Shown one piece after another: positions 35,070-40,922 of a stretch of 64,000 nt of DNA (positions are counted from its first letter, which is position 1; each line of letters opens with the position of its first letter). A program made the translations under genes and the position numbers. The notes beneath the pieces were generated by a model that was given only the letters and a program-made list of their open reading frames with translations, searched no databases and was not told the DNA's origin. Source of the DNA: Xanthobacteraceae bacterium (lineage in GTDB: Bacteria; Pseudomonadota; Alphaproteobacteria; Rhizobiales; Xanthobacteraceae); assembly GCA_035565775.1 (NCBI GenBank), contig DATMRW010000028.1:98856-162855 (forward strand). Reading direction: 5' to 3'.

Positions 35070-38000
35070 ATGTTCGATCCGATCGGCGGCTTCGACAGGA
35101 TGATCGAGCAGTTCCTTGCGTATCTCGATACGGCCTACCGTATCGATGATCCTAAGGTCTCCGCGATGCGGAGGGAGCTGCTTTCGCAGCCGGGGGAGCT
35201 TGCCCTCGATCCAATATTCGAGGCGGTGCCGCGCTACAAGACGGCAGGCCATGGTCTGGAGGCCCTGATCGATGATCCGGAAGAGAAGCTGCCCGGCTTC
35301 ACCAAACCGCAGAGAGAGGCGTTCATCAAACTCGCGCTGTCTGGCCTGTTCGAGCGCGACAAGGAAAGCGCGGAGATAAGGGGCGCATACGAACCCTACC
35401 TTCATCAGGTGCAGATGCTGTCGAAGGGCGTGTCGGATGGGGCACCGGGCATCGTTACCTCCGGCACTGGTTCTGGGAAGACGGAATCCTTTATGCTGCC
35501 GATCCTCGCCCAGCTCGCGAAGGAAGCAACGACGTGGCCCGCACCGCTGAAGCCAGTCGATGACGACTGGCTCGAAAAGCGGAGGCCGTTCCAGCTCCAT
35601 CGGCGGAATGAACATCCCGCGAGGCCAAAGGCGATCCGAGCGCTGATCCTCTACCCGCTAAACGCCTTGGTCGAAGACCAGATGGTCCGCCTGCGCAAGG
35701 CTCTCGACTCGCCCGATGCGCAGGAAGTCATGGAGAAGCACTTCAAGGGCAACCGCCTGTTCTTCGGACGCTACACCGGAAAGTCACCCGTTACCGGATT
35801 CCTTTCGCATCCGCGTAAGAGCAAGGATCCGTCTTGGATCAACCGAAACAGACGCGGCAGGAGGGAGCTGAAACAGGAACTGCAACGCTATCAGTCCATC
35901 CAGAAACGGCTGGACGCGGAGGGCGACGCTGATCTGCGCTACATCTTCCCGACGACGGACGGCAGCGAGCTGATCTCCCGGTGGGACATGCAGGCCACGC
36001 CGCCCGACATCTTGGTCACCAACCAATCGATCCTGAACGCAATGCTCGTCCGCGAAGTCGAAGACTCCATACTGACGCAGACGCGGGCCTGGCTGATGGA
36101 GACCCGGGATGCCAGGTTCTACCTCGTGCTCGATGAACTCCACCTCGTTCGAGGATCCGCCGGTGCGGAGATGGCGGGGCTGCTCAAGGTCCTTCTCGAG
36201 CGCCTTGGGCTGGCGGACGGAGCGCATGCACACAAGCTCAGGATCCTCTCGTCCTCGGCCTCGCTGCCAATGGACGAGGAAAACGCCAAGGTGAGCATCG
36301 AGTATCTGAGAAATATGTTCGGCGATGCCGGAACGGCCGGAGCAGAGGATCTCGATGCGGCCTGGAAAGACAGCGTCATCACCGGCAGGCCAATCGCGGT
36401 TCCGCGGCCGGAGCGCACGCCATCCCGCAGCAGCCTGGTCGAACTCTCCAGAGCGCTGAAGGATCTCGACTACAGGAAGCAGCCATCACTGCTCCTCGAG
36501 AAATTCGTAGCCGCCGCACAGAGCCTGCCGGGTTCCTCCGGCATTCCATCGCCAGAATTGATGTTGGAAGCCACCGCGGCGGCGGCAGCCATGTTGGATT
36601 TCGCGATGCAGGATGCGGACCGTCCCGGTGCGAAACGTCCAAGGTCGGTGGGGGAAATCGGCAATATCCTGTTCGAAGCCGAGGATCACGATGCGGTGCG
36701 CGGCCTGCTGGCCCTGCGTGCGATACCCGATCTGCCCAAGTCGGTTCTTCCAGATGAGCTCCGGCCGTCCCCCAAAGCGATCACGCACCTCCCGGGCTTC
36801 CGTATGCATAGCTTCGTGCGGAACATCGAAGGGTTGTTTGCCTCCGTCGGGCGCTCCGAAAATGGAGATGTGGCCTGGGGACGGCCCAGCGTCGAGCGCG
36901 GCCAGGACTACGATAAGGAGCATGGACGAAAGCGCCTTTTCGAAATGCTCTACTGCGAAGCTTGCGGCGACCTCTATCTCGGTGGAAAAAGGGGCGAGAT
37001 CGAGCCGGGCACATCTAGCCGGGTATCGCTGCTGCCCGCTCCCCAGGAACTCGAAAAGCTTCCGGAGAGCGCATCGTCTCTGCGGTTCGAGGAAGCCAGC
37101 TTCCGCGAATTCGCACTGTTCTGGCCAAGCCAGGGGACACCGGAAAGGGAAATCCGGTCCGAGCGGAGCCCGTACCAGTGGACACGAGGATATCTCAATC
37201 CGCTGACAGGGGTCGTCAGCGGCAAGGAAGAAGACGGCGACGTTTCCGGCTATCTCCTGAGGTGGGCAGGGAGCGACACGTTCCATCAACGGACGATCGA
37301 TGACGACGGTACTGCAGTCCCATACTGCTGCGCCAAATGCGGCACCGACTACTCCGGCCGATACCGGCAACCAAACTCGAAGAAACGCGAGGGCCGCATC
37401 TCGCCTATCCGAAGCTTCAGGACCGGCTTCGGAAAGACCTCCCAGCTTCTCGCGACCGAACTGGTCGCAGCGCTGAAGTCTCAGGGGGGCGACGGCAAGC
37501 TCGTCGCGTTCTCCGACAGCCGTGAAGACGCTGCCAATCTGGCCCTCGAGGTAGAGGTCCAGCACCAGCGGGATCTGCGCCGCGAGATCCTCATAACTGC
37601 TGCGACACGCATTGCCGCCGATCACGCCTACACCGCGGATGACGAGACCGAACTGCAGCGCCTGAAGGCCGAAATCGTCGAGTTGATGGCGGACGACAAA
37701 GATGCCGATCACCTCATGCGACAGCGGAATGCGCTTTTGAAGAGGAAGGCTGCGGCTGGCCAGCCGCCCAGCGTGCCGTTGAAGGATCTGTTCGAGTTCG
37801 AACGGGACAAGGTCGGACACGCGGCCAGACCGATCCTGTCCGAGCTGATGAAGCTCGGCTCGACTCCGGTCGAGGGTGCCGACACGATCCATACCCGTGT
37901 TCGCAACCGGCCTTGGTACGAGTTTTTCGAAAGGCAGGATGGCGACCAGATCGCCTGGAAGAGCGAGGTTCCGGAGGAGGAGCTGAAACTAATCCGAAGG

Positions 38001-40505: not shown

Positions 40506-40922
40506 TGCTACCGATGCCTCCAGAGGTACAACAACAGGAACCTCCACGGCCTGCTAGACTGGCGCCTTGGCCTGGCCTATCTCAGGGCGATTTCCGATCC
40601 TGGGTATGAATGCGGGTTCGATGGCGACTACGGTCGCTTCGAGCTGTCCGACTGGACGCAGGCATCATATGACCTTGCCCACCAGACGAAGACCTTCATT
40701 CCCGGAAACAAGGTCTCCAGCATCAACGGCAGAACGGATATCTCGATATTCTCGCTAGACGACCGTCAAAGTCGCTGGGGTGTCGTGGTTCATCCATTGT
40801 GGGACGCGAAGCGGTTATTCGAGACGCTGAGTCTGGATCGAAGTTTCGTCGCCATCGACAGTTTCGAGCTGTCCAGACGACCGCTTCATGTACTGCAACG
40901 CGCCCGCTCTGCCTCGAGGTGA
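40506..40922 (+). other. In-frame continuation of the helicase ORF after the TAG (rest of DUF1998/MrfA Zn-binding module, 138 sense codons)
   Basis: The same frame stays open to TGA 40920-40922. It reads CYRCLQRYNNRNLHGLLDWRLGLAYLRAI..., the conserved second half of the DUF1998 Cys4 signature. Confidence 0.7.

Follow-up and report, generated by a model that had tools for sequence, protein, structure and literature searches.

A solitary druE gene beside vsr in a Xanthobacteraceae bacterium is very probably the decayed 3′ end of a type II Druantia cassette

We examined a window of 64,000 nucleotides (64 kb; positions 98,856 to 162,855 of the forward strand of contig DATMRW010000028.1, which is roughly 304 kb long) from a Xanthobacteraceae bacterium, in which a single, very large helicase gene, druE, and a gene for a Vsr-type nuclease lie side by side. 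The locus had been picked out in a sequence-only reading, where the helicase was put forward as a candidate defence gene, which might be a helicase-plus-nuclease variant, either minimal or new, or else the stranded remnant of what was once a larger system, and where the DruE protein of Druantia was named as its best fit. The longest open reading frame (ORF) of the region in the ORF listing is 34995..40505 on the forward strand, and the start of druE is placed at the ATG at 35070, which is common to all the relatives compared. From this ATG, 1811 codons (35070..40502) are translated up to an in-frame TAG at 40503-40505; when the TAG is ignored, the frame runs through a further 138 codons to the TGA at 40920-40922, i.e., 1811 + 1 + 138 = 1950 codons, in agreement with the earlier count. 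The superfamily 2 (SF2) helicase motifs I, II, V and VI were all located in the product: Walker A TSGTGSGKTE (residues 130-139, nt 35457-35486), the DEAH-type motif II VLDELH (residues 353-358, nt 36126-36143), and a region of motifs V and VI (nt 38739-38858) composed of TTTMEVGVDIG (residues 1224-1234) and QQRVGRAGRRGQ (residues 1252-1263). Near the C-terminus, the Zn-binding signature HSGCGS-stop-CYRCL...LDWRL was found at residues 1806-1833, where the stop is the in-frame TAG. All the motifs quoted in the sequence-only reading were thus located, and the Pfam families DEAD (E=1.5e-12) and Helicase_C (E=6e-6) were both matched above their gathering cut-offs. No consensus promoter site was found upstream of druE in a scan that is uninformative either way.

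The best fit named earlier was borne out by profile comparison. The product matched the PADLOC profile DruE2 (PDLC00014) with E=0 and 1945 bits, residues 1-1807 aligning to profile positions 1-1775 of 1928, and the tail behind the TAG matched positions 1782-1926 (E=1e-36), which amounts to a full-length match to type II DruE at about 1950 residues. Among the other PADLOC DruE models, type IV, type I and type III followed with scores falling in that order, and the models of DrmA, DpdJ and BrxH matched the generic helicase C-domain only. Of the solved structures compared by sequence, the closest was PDB 9wae_A (“Helicase”, 1970 residues, seven entries), to which residues 2-1800 aligned with E=0 and 1238 bits and to which the tail aligned at residues 1817-1955 (E=3e-21); the window protein differs from it in that its last domain is cut off by the TAG. 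A solved structure of a type II-like DruE therefore seems to exist already, and a literature search by the code 9WAE returned irrelevant matches only.

Helicases of the housekeeping MrfA/Lhr type had also been allowed for as the closest homologues, and this candidate is rejected. MrfA/YprA and DISARM DrmA/DrmB do have in common with DruE a DEAH core of SF2 and, behind it, a Zn module of the DUF1998 type, and the core fold of DruE is common to MrfA/YprA (bioRxiv 10.64898/2026.05.12.722862). Nonetheless, the match to the YprA/MrfA structure 6znp (E=1.7e-7) covered only about 78 residues of the helicase C-domain, and DruE is 2.5 times larger than the YprA type of about 750 residues, with extra inserted domains. 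Because DruE2 is matched end to end and 9wae_A along the length, whereas YprA/MrfA is matched over those 78 residues only, we take the gene to be a druE of the type II Druantia clade. Its homologues, indeed, sit on plasmids and variable islands, beside methylases, insertion sequence (IS) elements and integrases. As for DISARM, the DrmA profiles matched the helicase C-domain in a stretch of about 66 residues only, at about E=1e-8, and no methylase lies in the window. Assignment to type III Druantia (DruH-DruE), for which mechanism and structures have been published, is likewise not supported; the helicase core is YprA-like in both and the two DruE proteins are similar in size, but the DruE3 profiles matched only locally (≤237 bits), PDB 9tu7_Y matched over about 90 residues, and there is no neighbour of the size of DruH (about 1100 residues), with no ORF of more than 604 residues within 7 kb on either side. 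Type IV (DruL-DruF-DruE; PMC8565338) comes closer, its DruE4 profile being matched nearly over the full length with 1121 bits, but this is far below the 1945 bits of DruE2, the relatives carry DruM, which is foreign to type IV, and DruF is absent from the 64 kb (DruL was not searched for directly). The locus therefore belongs to none of the MrfA/YprA housekeeping class, DISARM, and Druantia types III and IV.

The TAG at codon 1812 falls within the Zn-binding cluster H-x3-C-G-S-(S>stop)-C-Y-R-C-L, so that neither the C-terminal Zn module nor the C-terminal domain is intact. Three Cys ligands of the cluster and the last 138 residues of DruE are removed, and the tail, now untranslated (40506..40922, forward strand; 138 codons and the TGA), comprises the remaining part of the Zn module (CYRCL...LDWRL) together with the C-terminal domain. 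Among the 91 homologues in which the motif was found, 64 have Ser and 27 have Ala at this position. Since the two nearest nucleotide relatives (loci L004 and L007) have TCG at this codon, where the window and loci L010 and L011 have TAG, a single C-to-A change made the stop. The resulting length of 1811 residues is also out of line with the family; nearly all of the 120 best homologues listed measure about 1930-2010 residues, and five are shorter. Restart of a split gene behind the TAG was considered and rejected, as in-frame start codons occur only at 40785 and 40797, deep in the tail. Reassignment or readthrough of TAG is also unlikely, because TAG is an ordinary stop in this window, at which several other ORFs terminate.

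One might then ask whether the TAG arose by error in sequencing or assembly, or belongs to a minority allele, in which case druE would be an orphan but of full length. The source is indeed a metagenome-assembled genome, and constraint on the tail matches that on the remainder of the gene (omega, the ratio of nonsynonymous to synonymous substitution rates, of 0.12; see below). The identical TAG, however, was present in three assemblies made by different assemblers; the window, a MEGAHIT contig in ENA and a Logan contig were identical over 25.4 and 16.2 kb, including both the TAG and the left edge of the druG remnant described below. Because these two further assemblies carry both lesions identically, an assembly chimera at either site is rejected, and neither the TAG nor the druG junction is an assembler artefact. 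Also, exactly the 1811-residue product is on public record ([quoted passage not shown], MAG standing for metagenome-assembled genome) on five contigs; the protein is the sole member sequence of its cluster, and the examined contigs carrying it are identical to the window. Even an intact druE, furthermore, would still be without druM, druF and druG. We thus consider an erroneous TAG to be highly improbable.

Directly 5′ of druE, the last 31 codons of druG and its TGA remain (34972..35067, forward strand). This stub was recognized by tblastn with residues 643-673 of the DruG from Paracoccus (locus L004), which matched 34972-35064 with 58% identity (E=4e-6), and by nucleotide homology to the same locus, the closest relative, which begins at 34982. 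In the alignment of the two loci, the end of druG, its stop codon and the ATG of druE, two bases past that stop, are common to both. The left edge of the stub, at about 34972-34982, thus marks a deletion junction, at which no IS ends or repeats were found. Because the last 31 druG codons still abut druE, a canonical druM-druF-druG-druE operon must once have stood here, and a deletion with its right edge near 34972-34982 took druM, druF and about 95% of druG. Left of the junction lies a C-terminal fragment of FetB/UPF0014 (114 residues; 34461-34805, forward strand), identified by blastn to fetB genes and by the Pfam family PF03649 on record for the called gene; it corresponds to the decayed fetB that the sequence-only reading had described, and is unrelated debris.

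No partner of DruE was recovered elsewhere in the window, as had been noticed for the adjacent genes. When DruM, DruF and DruG of Agrobacterium F2 and of the Paracoccus locus were used as tblastn queries against the 64 kb with E values up to 10, DruM gave no match better than E=0.3, DruF gave none better than E=2.9, and DruG gave nothing beyond the 31-codon tail, the ORF holding this stub having no PADLOC match. The PADLOC Druantia models did not match the ORFs 28086-28814, 33224-33739, 42064-43035 and 43878-44942, and PADLOC and Pfam revealed no defence component in these four or in the ORFs 32823-33233, 34690-35067 and 42854-43456; the one match obtained was a weak one to PDC-S66, by the TIR protein at 25986-27767. 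Type II Druantia is defined in PADLOC by the requirement for DruM, DruF, DruG and DruE (PMC8565338), and types I and II have been described as multigene operons with methyltransferase modules (bioRxiv 10.64898/2026.05.12.722862). The locus agrees with type II in the end-to-end DruE2 match and in the retained druG 3′ end, druG stop and druE start, but differs from it in lacking druM and druF, in the reduction of druG to 31 codons and in the stop at codon 1812 of druE; none of DruM, DruF and DruG is therefore present as a component of a system. The DruM-DruF-DruG-DruE composition of type II is said to go back to Doron et al. in 2018.

Close relatives were collected by megablast, tblastn, a scan of genome collections and look-ups of exact proteins, and nine of them were intact: Agrobacterium F2 plasmid (L001), S. 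medicae pMl1 (L003), Paracoccus (L004), L005, L006, L008, L009, the metagenomic L012, and L013. As L001, L005 and L008 are near-identical, these nine loci represent about five or six independent lineages. Their DruE proteins are 65-91% identical to the window protein, and in all nine the order of the genes 5′ of druE is the same: a C5-cytosine methylase of about 590-670 residues, a protein of about 815 residues, and a protein of about 640-690 residues. In the Paracoccus locus, the methylase gene matched Pfam DNA_methylase (E=2.8e-48) and PADLOC DruM2 (E=9e-80), and the second gene matched DruF2 (E=4e-37); the third stands in the position of DruG and is homologous to its counterparts in the other loci, but has diverged too far to be caught by the PADLOC DruG models. 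Among more distant relatives, with about 40% identity, four plasmid loci (Rhizobium WSM4643, Roseomonas, A. pusense and Rubrobacter) have a methylase gene, two large genes directly 5′ of the helicase, and vsr. Every intact relative examined is, therefore, equipped with a C5-methylase gene and two large genes directly 5′ of druE, which in the close relatives are homologous to DruM, DruF and DruG. The sequence-only reading had itself noted that homologues accompanied by canonical partners would make this a broken known system, and this is what the nine intact close relatives showed without exception. In one of the distant loci (L014, Rhizobium sp. WSM4643), we also observed a convergent McrBC pair (mcrC and an AAA ATPase; 14902-18179) directly 3′ of druE, i.e., a methylcytosine-dependent restriction system beside a Druantia that carries a C5-methylase.

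On the other side of druE, the downstream Vsr-type nuclease of the sequence-only reading is encoded by 40815..41342 on the reverse strand. This vsr is an intact gene of a very-short-patch-repair endonuclease; it matched Pfam Vsr (PF03852) with 54.2 bits against a cut-off of 27 (E=1.3e-14) and the PADLOC Vsr profile with E=1.2e-16, and the D...DGCFWHGC motif region was seen in its translation, so that the protein belongs to the family and its activity is predicted. It runs convergently towards druE, and the two genes share 108 nt at the 3′ end of druE. Six of the nine intact close relatives (L001, L003, L005, L006, L008 and L013) have a vsr in this convergent, overlapping arrangement; in the remaining three, it is decayed (L009) or retained only in the part overlapping druE (L004 and L012). 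Its place varies further in the loci at about 40% identity, namely divergent upstream by the methylase, overlapping the methylase in the same direction (as in the Rubrobacter locus), or co-directional downstream. A stand-alone vsr accompanies a DruM-type C5-methylase in at least four positions or orientations (L001, L003, L005, L006, L008, L013, L014, L015, L016 and L017).

In the dcm-vsr pair of E. coli, a C5-methylase gene is overlapped by the gene of the Vsr T:G mismatch endonuclease, and an enzyme that writes 5-methylcytosine thereby travels with one that repairs the T:G mismatches arising from its deamination. The vsr of the relatives likewise shares its locus with the C5-methylase DruM; it differs from the E. 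coli arrangement in that, in the clade of the window, it stands at the far end of the cassette, convergent with and overlapping druE, and in that the methylase of the window has been deleted and vsr orphaned. Because vsr recurs in C5-methylase loci without a fixed position relative to DruE, it would be a companion of the dcm-vsr type rather than an effector of DruE, and the vsr of the window fits a leftover companion of the lost methylase. A separate vsr gene is not mentioned in the Druantia literature examined, and its regular association as a stand-alone gene with DruM in type II cassettes is therefore a mildly new by-product of this study.

The proximity of the two genes nevertheless raises a second reading, which is the helicase-plus-nuclease variant offered by the sequence-only reading: a functional two-gene module, in which a solo DruE acts with the adjacent Vsr as the nuclease effector of a new Druantia variant. 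In its favour, druE and vsr are adjacent with the 108-nt overlap and are kept together in the window and in loci L007 and L002; vsr is intact; druE has no frameshifts and its dN/dS is about 0.11; and in ARMADA, related YprA helicases carry fused nuclease domains of the Vsr type (PMC12458937). The druG tail abutting druE shows, however, that the present arrangement arose by deletion in a canonical operon, and the stop lies inside the Zn cluster of DruE. Vsr, moreover, is found in nearly all of the C5-methylase loci in varying position and orientation, often beside the methylase rather than DruE, and is missing or decayed in the otherwise intact L004, L012 and L009. The other loci that have only druE and vsr are helicase-dead: L007 (9767-14872) has an open ORF of 1561 residues that starts at DruE residue 487, about 486 residues including motifs I and II having been lost, with vsr intact, and L002 (Rhizobium NXC14; 16788-19131) has two internal fragments of DruE only, again with vsr intact. 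Judged from these sequences, L007 and L002 are independent decayed copies of type II Druantia that kept vsr, and the erosion of type II cassettes from the 5′ end with survival of vsr looks like recurrent decay and not like a selected minimal architecture. A functional two-gene module is accordingly given almost no weight here.

It is still conceivable that such 5′ erosion, by leaving pairs of a druE 3′ part and vsr, has in the present case led to the retention of the 1811-residue DruE without its Zn module and of Vsr as a working pair in defence or repair. If this were true, the pair would be a previously unrecognised minimal derivative of Druantia; we regard it as very unlikely. Better supported than such a working pair is the view that the stand-alone Vsr is a regular fifth part of type II Druantia, which is tied to DruM and outlives the decayed system.

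The DNA around druE is foreign to the rest of the window. The codons AGG, AGA, ATA, TTA and CTA, here counted as rare, amount to 31 per 1000 in druE and to 24-50 per 1000 in every ORF between about 25.9 and 46.4 kb, as compared with 0-15 per 1000 in the ORFs outside with a high GC content at third codon positions (GC3), and the different codon character noticed by eye in the sequence-only reading is thereby confirmed in numbers. Positions of about 25900-48000 form an island of low GC content (0.51-0.61) that is rich in rare codons and full of gene fragments, and druE sits in this compositionally foreign DNA.

Substitution rates were estimated by the method of Nei and Gojobori with a three-point decomposition of branches against L012 and L004. 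On the branch of the window, omega was 0.108 over the 1811 codons before the TAG and 0.119 over the 138 codons after it, values that are means over a long branch, in which the time since the deletion is not resolved; the intact relatives gave 0.08-0.25, and dS to the nearest sampled relatives was about 0.36-0.44. The lesions aside, druE thus shows the same signature of purifying selection as its intact relatives. Because the tail shows no less constraint than the codons before the TAG, the nonsense mutation would be recent relative to the split from the nearest sampled relatives; both lesions, the deletion and the TAG, are probably recent, and we infer that the low omega reflects recent damage rather than retained function.

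The same numbers could be taken to mean that the host has co-opted DruE, truncated or orphaned as it is, and keeps it for a function of its own, for example as an MrfA-like repair helicase working with Vsr. The frame is open over 1811 codons with an omega of about 0.11 on the window branch, and the core fold is common to DruE and MrfA/YprA (bioRxiv 10.64898/2026.05.12.722862). Past the open frame, however, no positive support for this reading was obtained; YprA/MrfA resembles DruE in no more than about 78 residues within the helicase C-domain (E=1.7e-7), the stop has destroyed a Zn module that belongs to the conserved core, and the gene lies among gene fragments and an IS element in foreign DNA. 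The 1811-residue protein, as a one-member cluster on identical contigs, looks like the product of a single lineage, and omega, as an average over a long branch, is blind to the time after the deletion. Co-option is hence exceedingly improbable.

Taken together, the locus is very probably what decay has left, at the 3′ end, of a type II Druantia cassette that was acquired horizontally and broken recently, and not a new system; of the two readings offered at the outset, the stranded remnant holds and the minimal or new variant does not. The proposal of a live candidate defence gene is also not sustained, given the druG stub, the TAG in the Zn cluster, and the methylase and two large genes that all the intact relatives examined have. 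In the relatives, the intact cassette reads druM, druF, druG, druE, and then vsr, which points the opposite way and whose end runs into that of druE. By analogy with published work on Druantia and on dcm-vsr, DruM would mark the host DNA, and Vsr, as in dcm-vsr, would nick the T:G mismatches that arise as 5-methylcytosine deaminates; DruE would be an ATP-driven YprA-like helicase that loads on single-stranded DNA and acts with DruF and DruG against phage DNA. In the lineage of the window, a deletion took druM, druF and druG except for the last 31 codons, and a single C-to-A change converted the TCG codon of a conserved Ser in the Zn-binding cluster of DruE into TAG. Because DruM, DruF and DruG are gone and the Zn module is cut, the DruE of the window would be unable to run the type II mechanism. 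The locus would no longer be a working defence system; the 1811-residue product, if made at all, would be a crippled orphan helicase, and vsr would be an intact leftover of the lost methylase module.

Several points weigh against this interpretation. The search for druM, druF and druG covered the 64 kb, and copies acting in trans from elsewhere are conceivable. An omega of about 0.11-0.12 on both sides of the TAG does not by itself show relaxed selection, and the frame of druE, 5.85 kb long, is fully open with no frameshifts except for the one stop; because dN/dS of about 0.11 shows no relaxation, some retained function of the 1811-residue product is also conceivable. The argument from partner dependence, furthermore, is borrowed for type II from types III and I. 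Partner dependence in type I was reportedly described by Doron et al. in 2018, and we know of no gene-by-gene test of requirement in type II Druantia. In type III, DruE alone gave no phage defence (bioRxiv 10.64898/2026.05.13.724313). Bell et al. (2025) assign types I and II to “Type IV CoCoNuT”, in whose operon they describe a homologue of CnuB that is McrB-like and inactivated (PMC12458937). According to the same paper, DruE of types I and II ends in a Vsr-like domain that is inactivated and so has no active nuclease of its own, whereas type III DruE carries C-terminal PLD (phospholipase D) nuclease domains.

Type II Druantia itself is already known, and the copy in the window is an ordinary broken example that matters little in itself. 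It offers, nonetheless, a clean case of how a defence cassette decays in a genomic island: the partners are deleted, the helicase is killed by a nonsense mutation, and the Vsr repair gene survives. In genome scans, therefore, the border of a “solo” signature gene, of which druE is an example, needs to be inspected for stubs of its partners before a new minimal system is proposed. The joint travel of Vsr with DruM, on the other hand, fits the logic of dcm-vsr, in which a system that writes 5-methylcytosine brings along its own T:G mismatch repair.

Other features of the island include an IS3-family transposase (45045-46395), a PNP_UDP_1/AMP-nucleosidase-like fragment fused into the ORF 42064-43035, an MFS_3 fragment (46539-46904) and an EAL fragment (47124-47693). 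In a search for an integration site, no tRNA genes were found in the 64-kb window. We also noticed a direct repeat of about 185 nt, the one notable repeat found, with 84% identity at 28867-29050 and 41808-41988, of which there are just two copies in the window, each with a perfect or near-perfect palindrome of 21-24 nt. The two copies bracket 12.9 kb with a two-component pair, small ORFs, the fetB fragment, the druG stub, druE and vsr, and the repeat is a candidate for an element like a miniature inverted-repeat transposable element (MITE), an intergenic mosaic element or a segment boundary. Inside the bracketed segment, an operon on the reverse strand (29300-32702) comprises the genes of a PAS histidine kinase and of a response regulator whose output domain is LuxR/GerE, together with a small Oxidored_molyb-like gene; in the relatives, these are unrelated to Druantia. 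Further to the left, a protein of 593 residues with an N-terminal TIR_2 and a CobT_C/vWA-like C-terminal part (25986-27767, forward strand) matched PADLOC PDC-S66 weakly (E=1.3e-7) and may be a defence gene of the island in its own right.

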